A DNA stretch of 64,000 bases from an uncultured Neisseria sp. (GTDB taxonomy: Bacteria; Pseudomonadota; Gammaproteobacteria; Burkholderiales; UBA11063), in contig CAZZAV010000002.1 of assembly GCA_964652705.1 (NCBI GenBank), forward strand, positions 47,306 to 111,305, given 5' to 3'. Position numbers and translations under genes: made by a program. Shown one piece after another: positions 53,344 through 64,000 of the stretch (positions within the stretch are counted from its first letter, which is position 1; the number at the start of each line of letters is the position of its first letter). Under the pieces are notes generated by a model. It did not search any database, was not told the origin of the DNA, and saw only the letters and a list, made by a program, of their open reading frames with translations.

Positions 53344-54402
53344 ATGGCGATAATTCTTGCAGTAGATGCTATGGGTGGTGATCACGGTGTCAACATTACC
53401 GTACCATCTTGTTTGCGCTTTTTGAATGAAACTCCAGATGTTAATGTAATCTTGGTTGGTGACCGTGATGCAATTTATAAACAAATTGGTGATAAATTAT
53501 CTCAATATAGCGATAGAATAGAAGTTGTCCATGCAACTCAAGTGGTTGGTATGGATGAGGCACCACAAAGTGCCATGCGCACCAAACGCGATTCGTCTAT
53601 GCGAGTTGCAATTAATTTGGTTAAAGAAGGTAAGGCGAATGCGATTGTCTCCGCAGGTAATACTGGGGCGTTAATGGCTATTTCGCGTTATGTTCTACGG
53701 ACAATGGATGGCATTGATCGCCCAGCGATTGCCAAACTGTTACCTACCGTCAAAGGTGAGGTTTGTATGCTGGATCTAGGTGCCAATATTGAATGTTCTC
53801 CAGAGCATTTAGTTCAATTCGGTATCATGGGTGCCCAATTAATGCGTGGTGTGACTGGCAAAGCTTCTCCAAGTGTTGGTATTTTAAATATCGGTAGCGA
53901 AGATATTAAGGGTAATGAAACGGTTAAAAAGGCCGCAGAGTTATTGAAAAAGACTAACCTTAATTTCTACGGTAACGTTGAGGGTGATGATATTTTTAAA
54001 AGTGTGGTTGATGTAGTTGTTACTGATGGCTTTACTGGAAATGTTTCTTTGAAAACTACTGAAGGTGTTGCCAAAATGATTGCGTTCTTTTTAAAAGAAG
54101 AATTTACCAGTAGCTGGCTTACTAAACTAATTGCTTTGATTTCTTATCCAGTTTTAAAGCGTCTTAAGTTGCGTTTAAATCCAAGTAAATATAATGGTGC
54201 GGTTTTACTTGGTTTAAATGGATTAGTTATAAAAAGCCATGGTGGTGCTGATATTGACGGATTTTATTATGCTTTAATGCAAGCTCATCATGAGGTTGAT
54301 GCTGGAGTAATTGGTCTTTTACAAGATTACTTACAAAATAATAAGCATATTGATGATGAGAGTGATGAACTTATTGAGTTTAATGATTTGAAAAGCTTAT
54401 AA
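53344..54402 (+). CDS. plsX: Phosphate acyltransferase
   Basis: AVDAMGGDHG, SAGNTGALM, RPAIA, VTDGFTGN and KSHG. Confidence 0.97.
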   Translation: MAIILAVDAMGGDHGVNITVPSCLRFLNETPDVNVILVGDRDAIYKQIGDKLSQYSDRIEVVHATQVVGMDEAPQSAMRTKRDSSMRVAINLVKEGKANAIVSAGNTGALMAISRYVLRTMDGIDRPAIAKLLPTVKGEVCMLDLGANIECSPEHLVQFGIMGAQLMRGVTGKASPSVGILNIGSEDIKGNETVKKAAELLKKTNLNFYGNVEGDDIFKSVVDVVVTDGFTGNVSLKTTEGVAKMIAFFLKEEFTSSWLTKLIALISYPVLKRLKLRLNPSKYNGAVLLGLNGLVIKSHGGADIDGFYYALMQAHHEVDAGVIGLLQDYLQNNKHIDDESDELIEFNDLKSL

Positions 54403-54478
54403 TTTTTAAAATAAATAGTATATAAATTTAAAAAAGTTGTTTAGTGGTAAATTGTTAATCAAAATAAGGTATAATTTG

Positions 54479-54510
54479 GGCGGGGTTTCAACCCTGCCTT
54501 TTATTTTTTC
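54479..54510 (+). terminator. Terminator-like hairpin between plsX and fabH
   Basis: GGCGGGGT-ttca-ACCCTGCC followed by TTTTATTTTTT. Confidence 0.7.
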
Positions 54511-54529
54511 TTAGGGTAGTAAAGTTAGT

Positions 54530-55489
54530 ATGAAATATTCAAAAGTTATCGCTACCGGAAGTTATTTGCCAGAGAAAGTTTTAACAAATAAAGATTTGGA
54601 ACAATTAGTTGAAACCAATGATGAATGGATTTTCGAACGTACTGGGATTCGTCAGCGGAGAATTGTTGCTGAAGGTGAAAAAACTAGCGATATGGCTTAC
54701 CAGGCTACATTGAATGCTTTAGCAATGGCGCAAATAGAGGTTAGTGAAATTGATTTGATAATTTTTGCAACCAGTACTCCAGATGTGATTTTTCCATCAA
54801 CTGCGTGTATTTTACAAAATAAGTTGGGTATTAAAACCAAGGGTTCATTTGATCTTCAGGCAGCGTGCACGGGATTTATTTACGCATTAACTACTGCAGA
54901 TTGCTATATTCGTTCAGGCATGGCAAAAACAGTTCTAGTAGTTGGTGCTGATTCTATGTCAAGAATTGTGGACTATACTGATCGTGGAACATGTATCTTA
55001 TTTGGCGATGGCGCTGGTGCGGTTATTTTACAAGCGAGTGATGAACCAGGAGTCCTTGGTTGTGATATCCGTGCGGATGGAGAATATAATTCCATCTTAA
55101 CTTGTGATGGACATTTATATAATGGTGAGATTTTGGGTAATCCATATGTGCAGATGGATGGGCAAGCCGTATTTAAATTTGCGGTTCGTGCATTAACTGC
55201 GGTTGCTAAAGATTTGGCCAAAAAAATAGAAATAAATTTGAAGGGTGTGAAATGGGTAATTCCACATCAGGCGAATATTCGCATTTTGGAAGCTACGGCT
55301 AAACTGCTTGGTACTGATATGGATCATGTAGTAACAACAGTTGAGAATCATGGCAATACTTCAGCTGCGTCTATACCATTGGCATTTGATTGTGCTGTGC
55401 GCGATGGTAGAATTAAGCGAGGGGATCTTTTACTGCTCGAAGGGGTTGGTGCAGGGTTCTCGTGGGGTGCTGCGTTTATTAAATTTTAA
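54530..55489 (+). CDS. fabH: 3-oxoacyl-ACP synthase III
   Basis: AACTGF, FGDGAGA, PHQAN and GNTSAAS (C-H-N triad). Confidence 0.97.
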   Translation: MKYSKVIATGSYLPEKVLTNKDLEQLVETNDEWIFERTGIRQRRIVAEGEKTSDMAYQATLNALAMAQIEVSEIDLIIFATSTPDVIFPSTACILQNKLGIKTKGSFDLQAACTGFIYALTTADCYIRSGMAKTVLVVGADSMSRIVDYTDRGTCILFGDGAGAVILQASDEPGVLGCDIRADGEYNSILTCDGHLYNGEILGNPYVQMDGQAVFKFAVRALTAVAKDLAKKIEINLKGVKWVIPHQANIRILEATAKLLGTDMDHVVTTVENHGNTSAASIPLAFDCAVRDGRIKRGDLLLLEGVGAGFSWGAAFIKF

Positions 55490-55507
55490 TTTATGGGAAT
55501 ATCGATT

Positions 55508-56446
55508 ATGACTAAATTTGCATTTGTTTTTCCTGGGCAAGGCTCACAAGCTTTGAAGATGATGGATAATTTAGCAGAGTTTGTTGTGGTTAAACAGACT
55601 TTTGCGGAAGCTTCGGCTGAAATTGGAGTCGATTTATGGGCAATGTTACAAGAAGAGAATGCAGATAATATTAATCAAACTATAAATACTCAGCCTTTGT
55701 TGTTAACGGCAAGTTATGCTACATATTTAGTTTGGTTAGAGCAATCTGGAAATAAAGCCCCTGATTATGTTGCTGGACATAGTTTAGGTGAATATACCGC
55801 TCTAGTAGCTAGTGGTATTCTAAATTTTGTTGATGCAGTTAAATTGGTGCGAAAACGTGCTGAGTTCATGCAAGAAGCAGTTAAACCTGGTGAAGGTGGT
55901 ATGGCGGCAGTTTTGGGACTTGCCGATGAGCTAGTAGTTGAAGGTTGTGCTGAAGTTATGGCTAGTGGTTTTGGTGTGGTGCAAGGTGTTAACTTTAATT
56001 CAGTGGGACAAGTTGTTATTGCAGGTAACAAGGTCGCAGTGGATAAGGCTGCAGAAGTACTTAAAGCTAAAGGTGCACGTAAAGTTATGCCTTTGCCAGT
56101 ATCAGTACCATCACATTGTGATTTAATGAAACCTGCTGCTGAGAAATTAGCGTTAGAATTAAATAGTGTTACGTTTAATTCGGCTAAAATTCCATTGGTA
56201 CAAAATGTAAATGGTGAAGTTGCTAATGATGTGGCAGCAATTAAAGATGGATTGATTAAACAATTATATTCACCAGTTCTTTGGACTAAATCAGTTGCTA
56301 CTTTAGCCGATAATCAAGTTATGATAATTGTGGAGTGTGGTCCAGGTAAAGTTTTGTCTGGATTGAATAAACGTATTCATGAAAGTGCTGCATTGTTTAA
56401 TTTAAATTCTGCTGCTAGTATTGCAACCTTACAAGAGTCTTTGTAA
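55508..56446 (+). CDS. fabD: Malonyl-CoA:ACP transacylase
   Basis: FPGQGSQ, TQP, GHSLGEY and SVPSH. Confidence 0.97.
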   Translation: MTKFAFVFPGQGSQALKMMDNLAEFVVVKQTFAEASAEIGVDLWAMLQEENADNINQTINTQPLLLTASYATYLVWLEQSGNKAPDYVAGHSLGEYTALVASGILNFVDAVKLVRKRAEFMQEAVKPGEGGMAAVLGLADELVVEGCAEVMASGFGVVQGVNFNSVGQVVIAGNKVAVDKAAEVLKAKGARKVMPLPVSVPSHCDLMKPAAEKLALELNSVTFNSAKIPLVQNVNGEVANDVAAIKDGLIKQLYSPVLWTKSVATLADNQVMIIVECGPGKVLSGLNKRIHESAALFNLNSAASIATLQESL

Positions 56447-56453
56447 TTTTAAT

Positions 56454-56966
56454 ATGCTAAGTACAGAGCAACAAATTATTTTAAGGCATATGCTTATTGC
56501 TGTGTTGGTTGTATTAAGTTTAGTTGTATTTTCATGGTGTATACCGTTGAATTTGCCATTTAGTCGACTTTATGTTTTTCTGTTAGCATTAATTTTACCG
56601 ATATTTAGTTATATTATTGGAATTGGACGGATTGCTGGTTTACGCTTTTTTGATGAAAGTGTTAGTAATCCATTAATTGTGATGAATAATAAAAATTTGA
56701 ATGCATTTAAACAATATTTGAGTAATACTCATGAACAGATTTTTTTGGCTGTAGTTGTTTATGTTGTTTTGTCAGTAACTTTGCCATCACAGCAATTATA
56801 TTTACTTTTATTATTTAGCTTATGCTTTGCAATTGGTCGAATTTTGTTTGCACAAGGTTATACACGTGGTGCAAGTGGTCGCAGCTTAGGATTTGCACTT
56901 ACATTTTATTCTAATGTGATTGGGTTTGTTCTTGGTGTTGCGTGGTTAATTAAAGCTATTGTGTAA
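56454..56966 (+). CDS. MAPEG-family membrane protein
   Basis: Four TM segments with YLSNTHEQ, GRILFAQGY and RSLGFALTFY. Starts 7 nt after the fabD stop. Confidence 0.75.
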   Translation: MLSTEQQIILRHMLIAVLVVLSLVVFSWCIPLNLPFSRLYVFLLALILPIFSYIIGIGRIAGLRFFDESVSNPLIVMNNKNLNAFKQYLSNTHEQIFLAVVVYVVLSVTLPSQQLYLLLLFSLCFAIGRILFAQGYTRGASGRSLGFALTFYSNVIGFVLGVAWLIKAIV

Positions 56967-57043
56967 ATGTTAATTTGATTTAAATTTAGAATTATAAGAT
57001 AGTCATAGATAAAATTAATTGGATAATTTATTAGGAGTTATTT

Positions 57044-57778
57044 ATGTCAGAAATTAAAAAAATTGCCTTGGTAACTGGTGCAAGCCGTGGTATTGGTCGT
57101 TCAATTGCAATTACCTTAGCTCAGAGTGGTGTAATTGTAATTGGTACGGCAACTAGTGAAAGTGGTGCTGAAGCGATTACATCGTATTTAAAAGAATTTG
57201 GTGGGCGTGGGGTTGCATTAAACGTAAATGATAAAGATAATATTGACGCGGTAGTTAAAGATATTGCGAGCAATGAAGGTGATTTGACTATCTTGGTAAA
57301 TAATGCGGGAATTACTAAAGATGGCTTATTGATGCGTATGAAAGAAGAAGATTGGGATGCTGTTTTGGATACTAATTTGAAATCAGTGTTTTTATTGGTT
57401 AAAGCAGCAATTCGTGGCATGACCAAAGCGAAATTTGGTCGAATCATTAATGTGGCATCAGTAGTTGGATTTATGGGTAATCCTGGGCAGATAAATTATT
57501 CTGCAGCTAAAGGTGGAATGATTGCAATGACTAAATCATTAGCCAAAGAATTTGGTAGCCGTAATGTGACGGCGAATTGCGTTGCACCTGGTTTTATTCA
57601 AACTGATATGACGGATAAATTGCCTGAAGATGTACGCGATTCATATATTAAAAATATTCCACTTGGACGCTTTGGTCAGGTTGAAGATATTGCTAATGCA
57701 GTGAAGTATTTAGCTAGCGATGAAGCTGGTTATGTGACTGGCTCTACTATTCACGTAAATGGTGGATTATACGTCTAA
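57044..57778 (+). CDS. fabG: 3-oxoacyl-ACP reductase
   Basis: VTGASRGIG, NNAGIT.D.L.MRM, NYSAAK and VAPGFIQTDM. Confidence 0.97.
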   Translation: MSEIKKIALVTGASRGIGRSIAITLAQSGVIVIGTATSESGAEAITSYLKEFGGRGVALNVNDKDNIDAVVKDIASNEGDLTILVNNAGITKDGLLMRMKEEDWDAVLDTNLKSVFLLVKAAIRGMTKAKFGRIINVASVVGFMGNPGQINYSAAKGGMIAMTKSLAKEFGSRNVTANCVAPGFIQTDMTDKLPEDVRDSYIKNIPLGRFGQVEDIANAVKYLASDEAGYVTGSTIHVNGGLYV

Positions 57779-57851
57779 TTTGATTGTAAAGATCTTAATT
57801 TGTAGCTATTATTAAATCAAGTAATATTTATAAATAATCAGTGTAAGTATC

Positions 57852-57896
57852 AATAATGTTGTTTATGGCTATCTTCGATAAATAAACAACATTATT
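57852..57896. repeat. Perfect 15-bp inverted repeat with 15-nt spacer upstream of dabB
   Basis: AATAATGTTGTTTAT (57852-66) and ATAAACAACATTATT (57882-96). Confidence 0.9.
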
Positions 57897-57987
57897 TTAC
57901 ATAATTTGTGCAATCTGTGTGTAACATCAATTAAATAACCAATCAATTCCTCATAGTATTATCGAATAATTTTGTAGAATTTTATAC

Positions 57988-60276
57988 ATGACAGTATTTT
58001 TCATTTTACCGCTTATCCCACTAATTGGTGGGATTTTTACGTTAATTAATTATTTCCGCCAAAAAGACACCAAGTTACTTAGTAATGTTTTTAGTGGACT
58101 TTTGTTTGTATGCGCTTTATTGGCGGCTTTCACCTATAAAACACCACTAGTATTCAATATTAATTTTTTTGAGGGTGCAGATAATATTATTCAAGATATT
58201 AAGCTGCAACTTGAAGGTCTATCATTATTCATGATAGTTTTGGTAAGTTCAATAAGTTATTTTGTGCATCAATTTGCTAGTCGATATTTGAGCTCTGATG
58301 CAAGCCAAGGGCGTTTTATGGCGCAGTTATCATTATTAACTGCCGCAGTGTTATTTCTAGTTATGGGGGGAAATCTCTTAAGCTGCTTTTTAGGGTGGGA
58401 GTTTGTTGGATTAACATTATATTTATTATTAAATCATTATCACTATGATCAAAGAGCGAATCGTGCTGCCAAAAAAGAATTTATTATTAACCGGCTGGGT
58501 GATGCTGCCTTCATGGTTGCAATAATATTATGTTTATTCTATTTTAACTCAAGTGAGTTTAGTGTATTAGCATCAAAACCGGTAATTATCTGGAGTGGGT
58601 TTGGCAGAACATTGTCATTACAAACATTAATAGTGTTTTTAATTTTTATTGCCATAATGACAAAGTCAGCACAATTCCCATTTCATATCTGGTTACCTGA
58701 CACCATGCAAGCTCCAACACCAGTATCAGCAATGATGCATGCTGGAGTAATAAACATCGGTGGATTCTTATTAGCACGGCTTAGTCCATATATTCCACTT
58801 GGTTCGGTATTAAGCGGTTTCATCTATACTATTGGCATGATTTCAATGGTTGCTGCAGCATTTTTTGGACTTAGTCAACACGATATTAAACGTCAACTAG
58901 CGTACTCTACCATGGGACAAATGGGCTATATGATAGTACAAACTGGATTAGGCTTTTTCTCTGCTGCGGTCTTTCATTTAGCTGCGCATGGTTTTTTTAA
59001 AGCTTATTTGTTTTTGTCTGCAGGTAGCACTATCGGTCATAAATATGAAAGCCATGGAGGCTCACTAAGACAAGGTTTAACTGCGATAAAAATCTCCGCG
59101 CTAACCTTCATTATTTTTGCCGAATATAACATCCTAGTTTATCATCATTTTCCAACATCCGTTGCTATTGTTGGAATGTTTGTTTCAATGTCACTTGGAC
59201 AATATATGTCCGAATTAACAATGTTAAGGATATCCAATAATCAAAAAGTTGTTATTTATCTTATCAGCTTAGTATTTTTAACGATCTATGTTTATTTGAT
59301 TAATGGATTGGATGATTATTTAAATTTATCTGTGGTAAATCAAACATCAAATGTCTCTTGGTATAAACTTGTGATTGCAATCTTGGTTATGCTATTACAA
59401 GTTTTTGTTTGGATAAAACCTTTAATCAAAAATGAAATATCCGTTATTGTGACGATTCGCGCATATTATTTCAGTGTGAATAAATTATTTATAGAGGAGT
59501 TTTTTCGTAAATTTATACTACAACCTTACGAGAAACTCTCTATTAAATTAAATGAACTTTGTTTATACCGAGCGTTTAAATTACCATTAGGTGCAGTAAT
59601 ATTTGGTTTTATTTCTGTTATCGTTATGTTACATGGATTGTTTGATTTAACAGGTGATGAGCAGAATAATTTATTAGTACTGCTAATTTTGACATTACTT
59701 GTGATTTCATTAATAACAGCATATAGGGCTAACACTTTAGGTCAAATAAATTATTATCTATTTATAGCTCAAATTAATATGGCAAGTATTGGCTTGTGTA
59801 GTATGACTAGGGGGTTTTTACGAACTCTTTCACTACTACAACTATTGAATGCTACTTTAATTTTTATTGGCATATATTATATCCAAAATTCATACCAGCA
59901 GACTGACCATGAACCGCCAAAAAGTGTTGGTAATAAACTTATTTGGTCAAGTTTTTATTATTGTATTTTAATGTTTTTGTTAGTTGGAGTACCATTTACC
60001 ACAAGCTTCACTTCAGAGTTATACATTCTTAGTGATGTTTTACAAGGTAGTCCATGCTTTGTTGTGATCGTAGCATTATCATTTGTATTTTTGGCTATGG
60101 CAATATTAAATGCATTACAAGAATATGTATTTAATGCTGAATCGATATTGCTGAAGCAAAATACTCAAATTAGCAGAATAGGCCATGTTTTTCTATTAGC
60201 ATGTATTTTTTTTAATATCATAAACGGTTTGGCGCCTAGTTGGTTGGTTCGTCACATTTATCTTTTTGGGGCGTAA
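57988..60276 (+). CDS. dabB: NuoL/ND5-like membrane subunit of a DAB inorganic-carbon pump, with C-terminal NuoM/N-like extension
   Basis: GWEFVG, NRLGD, KSAQFPFHIWLPD.MQAPTPVSAMMHAG, AYSTMGQMG and HGFFKAYLFL. Stand-alone (no other nuo genes) and 2 nt upstream of dabA. Confidence 0.85.
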   Translation: MTVFFILPLIPLIGGIFTLINYFRQKDTKLLSNVFSGLLFVCALLAAFTYKTPLVFNINFFEGADNIIQDIKLQLEGLSLFMIVLVSSISYFVHQFASRYLSSDASQGRFMAQLSLLTAAVLFLVMGGNLLSCFLGWEFVGLTLYLLLNHYHYDQRANRAAKKEFIINRLGDAAFMVAIILCLFYFNSSEFSVLASKPVIIWSGFGRTLSLQTLIVFLIFIAIMTKSAQFPFHIWLPDTMQAPTPVSAMMHAGVINIGGFLLARLSPYIPLGSVLSGFIYTIGMISMVAAAFFGLSQHDIKRQLAYSTMGQMGYMIVQTGLGFFSAAVFHLAAHGFFKAYLFLSAGSTIGHKYESHGGSLRQGLTAIKISALTFIIFAEYNILVYHHFPTSVAIVGMFVSMSLGQYMSELTMLRISNNQKVVIYLISLVFLTIYVYLINGLDDYLNLSVVNQTSNVSWYKLVIAILVMLLQVFVWIKPLIKNEISVIVTIRAYYFSVNKLFIEEFFRKFILQPYEKLSIKLNELCLYRAFKLPLGAVIFGFISVIVMLHGLFDLTGDEQNNLLVLLILTLLVISLITAYRANTLGQINYYLFIAQINMASIGLCSMTRGFLRTLSLLQLLNATLIFIGIYYIQNSYQQTDHEPPKSVGNKLIWSSFYYCILMFLLVGVPFTTSFTSELYILSDVLQGSPCFVVIVALSFVFLAMAILNALQEYVFNAESILLKQNTQISRIGHVFLLACIFFNIINGLAPSWLVRHIYLFGA

Positions 60277-60278
60277 TA

Positions 60279-62606
60279 ATGATTGAAGCTTTGATCAACA
60301 AAATTACAAAGTGCATACCAAGCTACCCACCATTACAGTCATTTAATGCGAGTAATCCTCTAATTGGACTCCATGAGTTACCGTTTGATGAGGCTATCGC
60401 ATCTGTTGCTAAATATGCACCGATATCAGGCACTCTCTCACTACATAAATATCATGCCTTTTGGCAATCTGGTAAAATAAATATCAATGACTTGAGCTTT
60501 GCGATTAAAGACTTTTTGGTTCAACAAAATATTCAAACGATAACTGAAGATACAATTTTAGAACTATTATTAGATAAATCCTTGCAAAGTAAATTTGCTG
60601 ATATTGATAGCAAAGTTAGACGTAATTTTTCGGCACAAATTTCTGGATGGTATGTTCAAAGCAATCAACGTGTATTTAGCTTTGTGGCACGCTTTTTTGA
60701 TATAGGTCAAGCGAAATGGCAAATGCCAGTAAAAAGCAATCAACTCTATTTAGCATGGCTTGAATACGCTAAGGTGAATTACTCTCGATATGCAATAATG
60801 CACCAGATGACAGACAATGTTTATACATCAATCAGAAACATGTTAAATTTAGCAGATATTCATGAAGATAATATTGAAGACTATTTACTTAAAGTGTTAT
60901 TTCAAATAATTGGCTGGGCTAGCTTTGTTCATTGGTTAGAGTTAGTAGAGATTAATCCATATGTTGATAAGCGGGGTAAAGTAGCAGATATTATTGCAAT
61001 TTGGCTTGCTGAGACATCAATTTTACATGGGAAACTTATGGAGTTTCCTGATAGTGTTTTTACCAATGTCGACAGCGAATTTGAAGAGGTTCTTCGTGAA
61101 TATTTCAAAAAATACAATGCCGATGAAGAATGTTTAGTAAAATTAAACCGTCATAATTGGAACTTAATTTGGCAATTGGCACTAGAGCATAATTACCGAG
61201 ATAATCTAGTTCGCCAGATCAAATTAAACAAGCATCGAACGATAGCAAAACCAACTGCACAACTATTATTTTGTGTAGATGTACGTTCTGAAGGATTACG
61301 TAGATATCTTGAAAGTTATAATAATTATCAAACTTTTGGCACTGCTGGTTTTTTTGGAGTTGGATTTGACTTTCATCACCAACATAATGTAACAAGGCAA
61401 AGCCCAGATTGGAGTACATCTCATCATTACTTACATGTCCCGACAAAACGGTTAACTCCATTACATAATGTTTTCAAAAATTTAGTTAATGGCTTATTAC
61501 GAACCAAAAAAAGTTTTTTGGCTCCATTGGTATTATTTGACGTTGTAGGTCTATGGTTTAGCTTAAGAATTATGGCAAATACTCTAATGCCATGGAAGAA
61601 GAAATTAATTGGTAAGCATCACCAATTAGAATATAATAGTTTTGATATTTTTCAAGACAGTAATTATTCGATTCAAGAATTAAGTCAACAAATAGCTAAA
61701 CTTCTCAGAAGCATTGGGCTATGTAACAATTTTTCTGAATTAATAGTGGTATGTGGACATTTAAGTGAGTCAGTAAATAATCCTTTTATTTCGAGTCTTC
61801 ATTGCGGTGCATGTGGTGGTAATAGTGGAGCACCAAATGCAATTGCATTCTGTCAAGCAATCAATGATCCACGAGTGAGAAGTCACCTAAGCCATCATGA
61901 AAATATTCATATTCCTGTTTACGTACAATTTGTTGCGGCTACTCATAATACAACTACTGATCAAGTGGATTATTACTATAATCAACATGTACTAAGTATT
62001 GATAATATCGAAAGATTAGATAGGTTAAAAAGGGATCTTGAGTTAGCAGGGAGAGACTTGTGCAATGAAAGGCAGTTACACATGGATGCCGAGCAAAGCG
62101 TTGATGTGCGTAAAGGTGACTGGGCTGAACTACAGCCTGAATTGGGGCAGGTTAATAATGCAGCATTAGTCATCGGACCGCGCGGAATCACCAGAAATAT
62201 TAATTTACAACGAAGCGTATTTCTTCAATCCTATGATTCTAAATTTGATCTTGATGGATCAATCTTGAATGATATTTTTAATTCAACAGTAAAAGTCGTC
62301 AACATGATAAATAGTCAATATTATTTTTCAACTACTGATCAAAATCTTTTTGGTAGTGGCAATAAAGTATTACATAACATTGTTTCACAATTGGGTGTTA
62401 TGGAAGGCAATAGTTCAGACTTAAAAATTGGCTTCTCACAACAAAGTTTATTTTACAAAGGTGAATCAGTGCATTTACCGCTAAGGTTATGCATCATTGT
62501 ATGTGCCCCTGAAAGTTTAGTAACTGAAACCTTGGCTAAAAATAGGCTATTAACTAAATTAATTGAGGGAAAATGGCTTAACTTTTATCAAATAGATCGC
62601 CAGTAA
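60279..62606 (+). CDS. dabA: DabA (DUF2309/MpsB) beta-carbonic-anhydrase-like subunit
   Basis: PLQSFNASNPL..L...PF, FCVDVRSE, TFGTAGFFG, CGH...NNP...LHCGACGG and GN-K-LHN. The C/D/H/C Zn ligand set is present. Confidence 0.9.
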   Translation: MIEALINKITKCIPSYPPLQSFNASNPLIGLHELPFDEAIASVAKYAPISGTLSLHKYHAFWQSGKININDLSFAIKDFLVQQNIQTITEDTILELLLDKSLQSKFADIDSKVRRNFSAQISGWYVQSNQRVFSFVARFFDIGQAKWQMPVKSNQLYLAWLEYAKVNYSRYAIMHQMTDNVYTSIRNMLNLADIHEDNIEDYLLKVLFQIIGWASFVHWLELVEINPYVDKRGKVADIIAIWLAETSILHGKLMEFPDSVFTNVDSEFEEVLREYFKKYNADEECLVKLNRHNWNLIWQLALEHNYRDNLVRQIKLNKHRTIAKPTAQLLFCVDVRSEGLRRYLESYNNYQTFGTAGFFGVGFDFHHQHNVTRQSPDWSTSHHYLHVPTKRLTPLHNVFKNLVNGLLRTKKSFLAPLVLFDVVGLWFSLRIMANTLMPWKKKLIGKHHQLEYNSFDIFQDSNYSIQELSQQIAKLLRSIGLCNNFSELIVVCGHLSESVNNPFISSLHCGACGGNSGAPNAIAFCQAINDPRVRSHLSHHENIHIPVYVQFVAATHNTTTDQVDYYYNQHVLSIDNIERLDRLKRDLELAGRDLCNERQLHMDAEQSVDVRKGDWAELQPELGQVNNAALVIGPRGITRNINLQRSVFLQSYDSKFDLDGSILNDIFNSTVKVVNMINSQYYFSTTDQNLFGSGNKVLHNIVSQLGVMEGNSSDLKIGFSQQSLFYKGESVHLPLRLCIIVCAPESLVTETLAKNRLLTKLIEGKWLNFYQIDRQ

Positions 62607-62651
62607 GATGTATATAATTATCCAGCATTAAGTGGCGTTATCTTAATATTT

Positions 62652-63896
62652 TTAGTCATTTGATAGTTTTGTAATTGCCCATTTAAATGTGGAGCCTTGA
62701 ATTAAAATTGAAGCTAGAACTACAACGTAGGTAATTGCGACTAGACTGTCAGGAAATTTATCGATAGATAATGCTAGAGCTATTGATAATCCACCGCGAA
62801 TCCCACCCCAAGCTAAAAGAGTACTTTTTTTGTAAGAAAAGCTAGCTTGGCGTTGAAAAAGCATACTTAGTAAAAAGTCAGGCGCCCATACGCTGATTAG
62901 GCGCGCAATAAATACAATAATAATACATACAACTCCAAGTATTATTGCGGCTTGATCAACTTTGATTGTTAGCATCATTAGTCCGATTAGAACAAACAAG
63001 AATGCATTTAATATTTCGTCAATTAACTCCCAAAAGTTATTTAAAACTAAAGTAGTTTCTTTGCGGAAATGCTGTTTTTTAGAGTATCCGCCGATGATTA
63101 ATCCAGCTACAACCATTGTAATTACGCCAGATACATGAAAGCGGTTAGCAACGACATAACCTACGCTTGATGCCGCAATTGAGATTAATGTAGCAACTTC
63201 TGGTGAGCGTGATTTCTTTAGTAAACGGCTGCAAATGACTCCGACAATGATTCCTAATATAATTCCACCACCAGTTTCGTGGATTAAACTTTCTGCTATA
63301 TGTGCAAATGTAATATGCGCATTCTCATAAACCATTTGGCTTAAAATTACTAACATTAAAATGGCACCCGCGTCATTAAATAAACCTTCACCTGTGATTA
63401 GAGTTTTTAGCCGCTGCGGTGGGTTAGGAATTGCTTTAAATGTTCCTAACACAGCAATTGCATCGGTGGGAGAAATTAATGCTCCAAAAATTAAACATTC
63501 GCCTAAAGTAAATGGAACGTTAAATATGTGCGCAATATAATAAAGCATATAGCCTGTTAGAAATGTTGAGATTACGATGCCTAGGCTAGCTAGATAAACA
63601 ACCGGCACAATTTCTTTTTTTAGTTCAATTGAGTTGACGTGTAGACCACTGGCAAAAAGTAGGTAACCAAGCATTACATCTAAGACAGTAGTTTTAAAAT
63701 CAACACTTTTAACCATTAAATATAATGGTCCAGCAAATGTCGGATTACGTGCTGAAATTATACTAACACCAATTGCGATGGTTATACTGATGATGGTAAG
63801 TGCGATAGTTTTTGGGAGGCGTAAATAACGGTCATTGATATAGCTGGCAAGTGCGGTTACCAAAACTAAAGTGGCAAATAATTCATGTAAACTCAT
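62652..63896 (-). CDS. CPA1-family Na+/H+ antiporter (NhaP-like)
   Basis: ISPTDAIAV, GEGLFNDA and WGGIRGGLSIALA. Minus strand, convergent on dabA. Confidence 0.9.
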   Translation of the reverse strand: MSLHELFATLVLVTALASYINDRYLRLPKTIALTIISITIAIGVSIISARNPTFAGPLYLMVKSVDFKTTVLDVMLGYLLFASGLHVNSIELKKEIVPVVYLASLGIVISTFLTGYMLYYIAHIFNVPFTLGECLIFGALISPTDAIAVLGTFKAIPNPPQRLKTLITGEGLFNDAGAILMLVILSQMVYENAHITFAHIAESLIHETGGGIILGIIVGVICSRLLKKSRSPEVATLISIAASSVGYVVANRFHVSGVITMVVAGLIIGGYSKKQHFRKETTLVLNNFWELIDEILNAFLFVLIGLMMLTIKVDQAAIILGVVCIIIVFIARLISVWAPDFLLSMLFQRQASFSYKKSTLLAWGGIRGGLSIALALSIDKFPDSLVAITYVVVLASILIQGSTFKWAITKLSND

Positions 63897-63937
63897 CTGG
63901 TAATTGATCTCCTAAATAATTGATTAATTTAGTGGTT

Positions 63938-63946
63938 ATTATAACA
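63938..63946 (-). promoter_or_regulatory. Extended -10 promoter TGtTATAAT for the antiporter
   Basis: The reverse complement of ATTATAACA is TGTTATAAT, 42 nt upstream of the start codon. Confidence 0.55.
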
Positions 63947-64000
63947 GATTGTGAGTTTTTTAAATGAATTGAAATACAGACCTCCTTTTGTTTTTATCAC

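Follow-up and report, generated by a model that had tools for sequence, protein, structure and literature searches.

A bicarbonate pump gene pair inserted behind fabG in an uncultured Aquella-like bacterium: a lineage-specific adjacency that is most likely incidental

The dabB and dabA genes that follow fabG in an uncultured Aquella-like freshwater betaproteobacterium are best explained, with a probability that we place at about 0.8, as an intact and selectively maintained two-gene cassette for an energy-coupled CO2-hydrating pump of the DAB2/MpsAB-like type, the position beside fabG being an incidental by-product of insertion and the pump not being dedicated to fatty-acid synthesis. The value of this result is mainly negative, as the notion of a pump wired to fatty-acid synthesis rests on one species-specific insertion for which the sister lineages have empty sites, and as pumps of the DAB/MpsAB type had been known from heterotrophs before.

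Layout of the locus

The window, by which we mean the whole stretch of 64,000 nucleotides that was analysed, lies entirely on contig C2 of a 99-contig draft genome that is 99.9% complete. The gene order is plsX-fabH-fabD-MAPEG gene-fabG, followed by a 209-bp gap, dabB, dabA and then a convergent nhaP-like antiporter gene, with the following features:

53344–54402, + strand: plsX, opening the fab cluster after yceD-rpmF (PF02504, E 8e-110; 70–96% identity in congeners)
54530–55489, + strand: fabH (PF08541 and PF08545)
55493–56446, + strand: fabD (TIGR00128, 337 bits, cut-off 261)
56454–56966, + strand: gene for a MAPEG-family membrane protein of 170 aa, between fabD and fabG (PF01124, E 1.4e-11)
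57044–57778, + strand: fabG, final gene of the local fab cluster (NF004197, 365.7 bits; TIGR01830, 334.7 bits, cut-off 297.75)
57779–57987: fabG-dabB gap, 209 bp
57779–62650, + strand: lineage-specific segment of ~4.9 kb (gap, dabB, dabA and 45 bp) between convergent fabG and nhaP
57852–57896, + strand: terminator-like hairpin in the fabG-dabB gap, made of a perfect 15-bp inverted repeat with UUUU behind it
57988–60276, + strand: dabB, 762 aa, NuoL-like proton-path subunit (residues 1 to ~560) with a fused C-terminal module (PF00361, E 2.7e-55, and PF00662)
59539–60273, + strand: C-terminal module of DabB, 245 aa, fused to the NuoL-like part and predicted to be one half of an antiporter-like (NuoM/N) subunit
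60279–62606, + strand: dabA, 775 aa from ATG, beta-carbonic-anhydrase-like catalytic subunit (PF10070)
62652–63896, - strand: nhaP-like gene for a CPA1 cation/proton (Na+/H+) antiporter, convergent (PF00999)

The canonical proteobacterial fab cluster of the E. coli type has the order yceD-rpmF-plsX-fabH-fabD-fabG-acpP-fabF. The cluster studied here shares yceD-(rpmF)-plsX-fabH-fabD-fabG in the canonical order but differs in that a MAPEG gene stands between fabD and fabG, that the cluster stops at fabG and that acpP and fabF lie at distant loci throughout the genus. fabG itself scores above the cut-offs of both NF004197 and TIGR01830 and has a good AGGAG ribosome-binding site. The MAPEG gene between fabD and fabG, overlooked in an earlier note on this DNA, has counterparts of 56–61% identity in some congeners and is missing from others.

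That note had correctly seen that the window holds neither acpP nor fabF; the sole acpP of the genome lies on contig C4 and the sole fabF on C24. Its view that dab sits in the place usually taken by these two genes is wrong for this genus, since neither is found downstream of fabG in any of 20 congeners and since the three loci lie far apart in the closed Aquella genome, so that dab did not replace them. In that genome (G028) the fab cluster, acpP and fabF lie at 0.85, 1.29 and 2.65 Mb, with spacings of 0.4–1.8 Mb, the fab cluster being separated from acpP by 0.44 Mb and from fabF by 1.8 Mb.

An intact dabB-dabA pair

The open reading frames and family scans agree with the earlier placement of dabB-dabA 209 bp after fabG, and the identity then assigned to the two genes is borne out by a full-length PF10070 match, a PF00361 partner 2 bp away and a zinc site that is kept. 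The dabA open reading frame spans 60240–62606 from a TTG, while its start is likely the ATG at 60279, 2 bp past the dabB stop. DabA covers the full PF10070 profile (positions 1–747 of 747, E 1.1e-175), matches DabA2 end to end (9rd0_A, E 3e-79, residues 5–773) and carries the motifs FCVDVRSE and GH...HCGACGG. The DAB2 complex of Halothiobacillus neapolitanus has the zinc ligands Cys351, His524 and Cys539 and an Asp353-Arg355 dyad (10.1101/476713; 10.64898/2026.03.13.711513). The counterparts of DabA2 Cys351, Asp353, Arg355, His524 and Cys539 are C332, D334, R336, H494 and C509, all of which are invariant in an alignment of 11 relatives. DabB matches DabB2 (9rd0_B, E 3e-40), and its structural model aligns to NuoL with Z scores of 27–30 over residues 1–561. 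By these criteria of homology dabB-dabA is evidently an intact, genuine DabB/DabA pair. The two genes are under purifying selection, with 88 synonymous versus 20 non-synonymous codon differences between the two strains in which they have been found behind fabG.

A lineage-specific insertion between fabG and nhaP

The arrangement fabG-dabBA occurs in only one species-level lineage, represented by two independent assemblies. The second of these (L126), from another sample, is 95.4% identical over 13.3 kb and likewise has the order fabH-fabD-MAPEG-fabG-dabB-dabA-nhaP. Homology to dab-less relatives ends at 57777/57778 and restarts at 62651. In two relatives (G002 and G021), whose FabD is 88–89% identical, a convergent nhaP lies 107 bp after fabG, and a convergent nhaP also follows fabG in ten further contigs (L136–L145) from other samples with 79–85% DNA identity. 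The fabG-nhaP interval in relatives measures 100–430 bp or holds unrelated genes, and in other congeners fabG is followed by AstE-like and S51 peptidase genes, ilvC, a LysR gene or GNAT-cmk genes. Judged from these alignments, fabG originally had nhaP as its neighbour in several related lineages, and the fabG-dab adjacency goes back to a single lineage-specific insertion of ~4.9 kb that came to lie between the two convergent genes. Being limited to one species-level lineage, the adjacency is a unique rearrangement, the first of the two things that the earlier note had together held against its proposal, the second being independent transcription.

Although a 99-contig draft could in principle harbour an assembly or binning chimera at this point, we regard this explanation as practically negligible and have rejected it, because the independent assembly, which stems from a different run, shows the identical order of genes over both junctions and differs by scattered SNPs. 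At the flanks of the 4.9-kb segment there are no terminal inverted repeats and no target duplications, and the intergenic sequences of the locus have no repeats elsewhere in the genome. The GC3 of dabB and dabA (0.25–0.26) equals that of the neighbouring genes, so that composition gives no transfer signal. Identity between the two strains is mosaic (86–98%) and patchy on both sides of the dab segment, a pattern that was considered as a sign of recent dab transfer and is not decisive.

The closest dabBA orthologues, with 61–68% identity, are found in four other contexts, namely after a patatin gene (G013), by FUSC/LysR genes, by a metallophosphatase gene and by IS fragments. A survey of 80 diverse DabA loci, covering up to 10 kb on each side, found fabD, fabH, plsX or acpP at none of them, and fab genes stand beside none of 18 dab loci of relatives and not beside the second dab copy of the genome itself (1.5–8 kb on each side). 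The survey of fabG-dab synteny that had been proposed earlier consequently yields no recurrence in ~100 other dab loci. Upstream of dabB the five cassette contexts have nothing in common outside the start codon region. The locus thus shows dabBA to be a self-contained cassette of two genes that travels among Aquella-like bacteria of fresh water.

Host and inorganic-carbon systems

Neither a RuBisCO large chain (PF00016) nor any BMC shell protein (PF00936) turned up in family scans of the whole 99.9%-complete genome, and the earlier observation of missing RuBisCO and carboxysome genes is thereby extended from the window to the genome. The organism shares its GTDB genus with Aquella oligotrophica (G028), an aerobic tap-water isolate. 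Because of the lack of these genes and the cultured aerobic congener, the host is very probably a heterotroph, as had been supposed. A check of the genome for carbonic anhydrases, also proposed in the earlier note, turned up a SulP-STAS-beta-CA (carbonic anhydrase) fusion, and a second dabBA copy is encoded on contig C26. Three inorganic-carbon systems in one small oligotroph would fit a strong pressure for bicarbonate supply at low levels of nutrients and CO2. The bicarbonate users present in the genome include accB and accC (contig C4), Ppc and Sua5; acetyl-CoA carboxylase, rightly named before as a user of bicarbonate, is one known consumer among others.

Comparison with known DAB systems and proposed mechanism

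The pair resembles DAB2 of H. neapolitanus (PDB 9rd0) in being a two-gene dabB/dabA unit with no separate third gene, in the end-to-end alignment of DabA, in the Cys-Asp-Arg-His-Cys active-site set and in its NuoL-like PF00361 DabB. In contrast to DAB2, the gene order is dabB then dabA, the host lacks RuBisCO and a carboxysome, DabA is only ~30% identical, and DabB has 762 aa instead of 551 aa, owing to a half-NuoM-like module fused to its C terminus. With MpsAB of S. aureus and the MpsAB-like system of B. subtilis it shares the presence of a DAB-family pump in a non-autotroph, whereas the Firmicute systems belong to another DabA/DabB clade and the genome studied here holds two DAB pairs and the SulP-carbonic anhydrase fusion. 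MpsAB systems provide the bicarbonate that anabolic carboxylations need at air-level CO2 (PMC6689103; 10.64898/2026.09.08.750065), and by analogy we propose an MpsAB-like bicarbonate supply at air-level CO2 as the candidate role of the pair.

The two-gene dabBA cassette came into the genome of a single uncultured Aquella-like betaproteobacterium from fresh water by settling in the short spacer that separates the convergent genes fabG and nhaP and that holds different unrelated genes in congeners. In the proposed mechanism, CO2 diffusing inward would most likely be hydrated by cytoplasmic DabA at its Cys2-His zinc site, as in DAB2, and cation flow via the NuoL-like DabB would render the hydration one-directional, leading to the accumulation of bicarbonate. 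This bicarbonate would be supplied to all dependent enzymes, that is acetyl-CoA carboxylase, PEP carboxylase and Sua5 and, presumably, carbamoyl-phosphate synthetase and PurK. Both the pump activity of DabAB and its energy coupling are putative and follow from the likeness to characterized systems.

Is the pump linked to fatty-acid synthesis?

The gap between fabG and dabB contains the hairpin at 57852–57896, which has a predicted stability of -14.8 kcal/mol (z -5.8; none of 200 shuffles equally stable) and whose stem is retained in the second strain. Being A+T-rich and followed by only four U, it could act as a weak terminator or simply form a structure within the 5'-UTR. A consensus terminator scan returned two terminator-like sites, both within coding sequence; the hairpin is not listed there because the rule requires three G-C pairs. 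For the stretch from the hairpin to the start of dabB, a consensus promoter scan found no convincing sigma-70 promoter, and the lone promoter-like site on that strand, at 57784–57812, lies upstream of the hairpin. An Rfam scan of 56300–63000 found no riboswitch or known RNA and gave one sub-threshold snoRNA match only. We predict that dabBA is transcribed separately from fabG, although read-through from the fab cluster could occur given the common strand, the 209-bp distance and the lack of a convincing promoter after the hairpin.

[quoted passage not shown] However, persistence in two strains ~5% apart in DNA is compatible with a benefit of the location rather than evidence for one. Moreover, the arrangement is not conserved in any other lineage seen, accABCD lie outside the fab cluster (accB and accC on contig C4), the gap holds a stable hairpin that ends in a U run, the convergent-gene spacer takes up unrelated genes in congeners, and elsewhere the cassette occurs in four contexts that lack fab genes. 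We therefore consider this explanation unlikely, and the coupling suggested in the earlier note is unsupported in view of an adjacency that is unique to one lineage, its lack of recurrence and the terminator-like hairpin in the gap. An extended form, in which the insertion made a new transcription unit with the fab promoter driving the DAB pump and thereby matched bicarbonate capture to membrane-lipid synthesis in one oligotrophic species, is speculative and, to our mind, likewise unlikely.

The neighbouring gene on the other side invites a different explanation, in which DabAB is mainly a cation-translocating or membrane-potential system that, together with NhaP, would serve pH or Na+ homeostasis instead of carbon supply. 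In its favour, DabB is of the NuoL/MrpA-like cation-path type, dabBA adjoins a CPA1 antiporter gene, and MpsAB was originally described as a membrane-potential system, though the same source has it later shown to supply bicarbonate (PMC6689103). We hold this explanation to be very improbable, as DabA retains the full zinc and Asp-Arg catalytic set for CO2 hydration and as nhaP, the ancestral neighbour of fabG, occurs without dab in relatives, which makes the dab-nhaP adjacency incidental. The same applies, most likely, to the fabG-dab adjacency, since the insertion that gave rise to it is specific to one species of freshwater heterotroph and took place where the gene content varies.

The fused C-terminal module of DabB

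The more interesting lead on the construction of DAB pumps is the C-terminal module of DabB. Its structural model (pLDDT 80.5) has its best match in residues 168–492 of 3rko_M (Z 19.5, rmsd 4.7, 224 aligned), the best 25 structural matches are all antiporter-like subunits, and a profile search leads to the C-terminal halves of ~480-aa, NuoM/N-sized proteins (E 1e-8). As modelled, DabB thus carries a fused half-NuoM-like module. In the cited DAB/MpsAB literature we found no description of a two-gene DAB with such a module fused to DabB.

The DAB1 systems of Thermocrinis albus and H. neapolitanus consist of DabA1, DabB1 and DabC (PMC13684180). The DabB module matches DabC in size and half-NuoM fold type, but DabC is a separate protein of 247 aa without significant sequence or profile similarity to the module, DabA1 has ~1040 aa, and the DAB1 operon of Thiobacillus (L133) is set in a RuBisCO/carboxysome locus, neither of which exists in the genome studied here. 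Comparison of the DabB C terminus with DabC gave nothing by BLASTP and an hhalign probability of 0.25%, and searching the PDB sequences with E values up to 10 likewise gave nothing significant for DabC homology. While DabC of DAB1 has hydrophobic residues at the NuoM proton-path positions (PMC13684180), the DabB module retains the invariant glutamate E677, which hhalign sets against a hydrophobic DabC position in an alignment that is itself not significant (probability 0.25%). As conjectural as the new transcription unit considered above, and separate from it, is the idea that the DabB-fused half-NuoM-like module with its conserved glutamate could represent an evolutionary intermediate between DAB2 and the three-subunit DAB1.

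The fabG-dab locus

The earlier note had described a dabB-dabA pair 209 bp after fabG, at the position where acpP and fabF normally follow; its coordinates and gene calls are right, and the MAPEG gene alone was missed.

Genes of the locus (window positions, strand, identity)
5' of plsX, towards the window end; +; ubiA, an MFS gene, yceD, (rpmF)
53344-54402; +; plsX
54530-55489; +; fabH
55493-56446; +; fabD
56454-56966; +; MAPEG-family membrane protein gene, 170 aa, between fabD and fabG
57044-57778; +; fabG
57988-60276; +; dabB, 762 aa, after the 209-bp gap
listed ORF from TTG at 60240, ATG at 60279; +; dabA
62652-63896; −; gene for a CPA1-type Na+/H+ exchanger (nhaP), convergent with dabA, 45 bp apart

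The dabA ATG at 60279 lies 2 bp past the dabB stop and agrees with the N termini of relatives. The MAPEG gene occurs in part of the genus, at 56-61% identity versus 80-88% for its neighbours, and is absent from other close lineages, in which fabD and fabG are spaced by about 50 bp.

The fabG-dabB gap holds a perfect 15-bp inverted repeat (57852-57896; −14.8 kcal/mol, z −5.8) followed by UUUU, which is retained in a second strain; this A+T-rich hairpin resembles an intrinsic terminator of fabG but could instead belong to a leader. Upstream of it lies a weak promoter-like site (57784-57812), with none evident downstream, and an Rfam scan of 56300-63000 matched no known RNA family.

Location of acpP and fabF

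The only acpP of the genome stands alone on another contig (C4; L002:8692-8940, − strand), divergent from DUF3579-aroQ-accB-accC-prmA, so that the carrier gene adjoins acetyl-CoA carboxylase genes rather than fab genes, while fabF lies on a third contig (C24) after ppsA and before a nucleotidyltransferase gene. Neither gene was found 3' of fabG in any of 20 congeners (about 1 to 8 kb fetched, bounded by contig ends), and in all five congeners tested both are at other loci. Aquella oligotrophica, of the same GTDB genus, has a closed genome (a single contig of 2,820,660 bp; FabG, WP_102950773) with fabD at 0.85, acpP at 1.29 and fabF at 2.65 Mb. Dispersal of the canonical cluster is thus an ancestral trait of the genus with no relation to dab, and the proposal that the pump replaced acpP-fabF falls away.

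Origin of the fabG-dab adjacency

In the two closest species representatives (FabD 88-89%, FabG 93-94% and NhaP 89-91% identical), a convergent nhaP is found 107 bp after fabG, with an inverted repeat between them that resembles a two-way terminator. The same empty junction is present in 10 more contigs from other samples, some with the MAPEG gene (82-85% DNA identity) and others without it (79-85%). Homology of these relatives to the window ends at the fabG stop (57777/57778) and restarts at the nhaP stop (62651). Other congeners carry, 3' of fabG, AstE-like and S51 peptidase genes, a hypothetical gene, convergent ilvC-ilvIH, LysR, or GNAT-cmk. The dabBA pair was found at fabG only in the window's species: once in this genome and again in an independently assembled second strain from another run (L126), which is 95.4% identical over 13.3 kb. 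The same gene order across both junctions in L126, which rules out misassembly, together with the empty junctions of the relatives, shows that about 4.9 kb was gained once, in this lineage alone, within a spacer that forms a hot spot of gene turnover. At the insertion in the window, neither terminal repeats nor a target duplication nor any compositional signal was found.

Over 54403-63998 the two strains match in a mosaic pattern (identity over fabH-fabD 86-92%, dabBA-nhaP 97-98%, about 1 kb beyond 89-91%), suggesting that homologous recombination is frequent in the population.

The nearest DabA relatives anywhere are 61-68% identical, each in a different setting; dabB and dabA travel together in every case and no other gene accompanies them.

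Contexts of the nearest dab relatives
after asd-fimV-truA-patatin (G013, a relative's genome)
between a FUSC-type gene and a LysR gene
after a metallophosphatase gene
beside transposase fragments and what remains of a second dab locus

In three loci with DabA relatives (L130:1677-10000; also L131 and L132), a 64%-identical dabBA lies by DDE/rve transposase fragments and a DUF6671 gene, with a truncated 340-aa DabA on the opposite strand, an arrangement suggesting that one dab cassette landed next to what is left of a second, decayed one.

A survey of fabG-dab synteny revealed no recurrence. No fab gene was found near dab in 18 loci of relatives from the same genus or order, nor by the genome's own second dab copy (1.5-8 kb fetched each side in both cases). 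Across 80 loci of DabA relatives from bacteria and archaea (up to 10 kb each side), fabD, fabH, plsX and acpP were absent; seven contain generic short-chain dehydrogenases (24-38% identical to FabG) and one has fabF, about 8 kb off on the other strand. Bicarbonate is consumed by many pathways and DabAB loci recur in apparent heterotrophs, so that a single fortuitous juxtaposition of dab with such a pathway is to be expected.

DabA, DabB and the probable role of the pump

DabA covers the whole of Pfam profile PF10070 (E 1e-175) and can be aligned along its entire length with DabA2 from the Halothiobacillus neapolitanus DAB2 complex, whose structure is solved (9rd0_A, E 3e-79). In DAB2, mutagenesis and cryo-EM assigned zinc binding and water activation to Cys351, His524, Cys539 and the Asp353-Arg355 dyad (10.1101/476713; bioRxiv 10.64898/2026.03.13.711513). 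The counterparts C332, H494, C509, D334 and R336 are invariant across an alignment of 11 relatives. The DabB core is NuoL-type (PF00361/PF00662) and matches DabB2 (9rd0_B, E 3e-40), and in an AlphaFold model of DabB (pLDDT 72.5) residues 1-561 fit NuoL at Z 27-30. Codon differences in dabBA between the two strains (88 synonymous versus 20 non-synonymous) indicate purifying selection.

The 2.46-Mb genome (34.8% G+C, 99.9% complete) contains no RuBisCO large chain, BMC shell protein or alpha-carbonic anhydrase. The absence of RuBisCO and shell genes, and the congener A. oligotrophica, an aerobic Neisseriaceae bacterium from tap water, make heterotrophic life in fresh water very probable for the host, in line with the earlier note's assumption. 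The only carbonic anhydrase domain found in the genome, a beta-type one, is the C-terminal part of a 736-aa SulP-STAS-CA fusion (L124:6784-8994, contig C1, − strand), an anion transporter that constitutes a third inorganic-carbon system. The second dabBA pair, 41% identical to that of the window, lies on contig C26:

3931-11007 of L006 (G000:C26:19000-30691); −; marR-dabB-dabA-DUF6671-sua5-metK

Within the genus, A. oligotrophica included, loci of this type are the more frequent; they have an upstream ORF of similar size (158-163 aa), shown as MarR in this genome only. DUF6671 comes after dab genes in L130-L132 as well.

We consider it probable (about 0.8) that the window's DAB is a general-purpose bicarbonate-trapping pump. 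A single oligotrophic species would have gained it in cassette form, and it would supplement the existing DAB pair and the SulP-CA fusion, the trapped bicarbonate serving all carboxylations; bicarbonate consumers in the genome include accB/accC, PEP carboxylase and Sua5. Coupling of the pump to fatty-acid synthesis by read-through from fabG, as the earlier note had envisaged, is doubtful, as it finds no comparative support and the adjacency is one species' lineage-specific gain. A role in cation homeostasis together with NhaP is unlikely, since nhaP is the ancestral neighbour of fabG and DabA has kept its catalytic set.

A fused C-terminal module in DabB

DabB (762 aa versus 551 aa in DabB2) is longer by about 210 aa and ends in a module of 245 aa:

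59539-60273; DabB C-terminal module, residues 518-762

The module is conserved in 13 orthologues with 30 invariant positions, and its model (pLDDT 80.5) superposes on the C-terminal half of NuoM and relatives (NuoN), the best match being 3rko_M residues 168-492 (Z 19.5, rmsd 4.7 Å, 224 residues aligned). All of the first 25 structural matches are antiporter-like subunits, and Z drops to 10 after them; Foldseek gave E 3e-4 and TM-scores of 0.57-0.68. DabC of DAB1 (PMC13684180) is a separate subunit to which the module is alike in size and fold type, and the module may thus be its fused counterpart. BLASTP and hhalign detected nothing significant between the module and Thiobacillus-type DabC; in the hhalign alignment, itself not significant, the invariant E677 stands opposite a hydrophobic DabC position. 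In a profile search with the module, 47 of the 150 best representatives were 700-799 aa long, with the module C-terminal in those listed, and the profile also matched the C-terminal halves of NuoM/N-sized proteins of about 480 aa (E ~1e-8).
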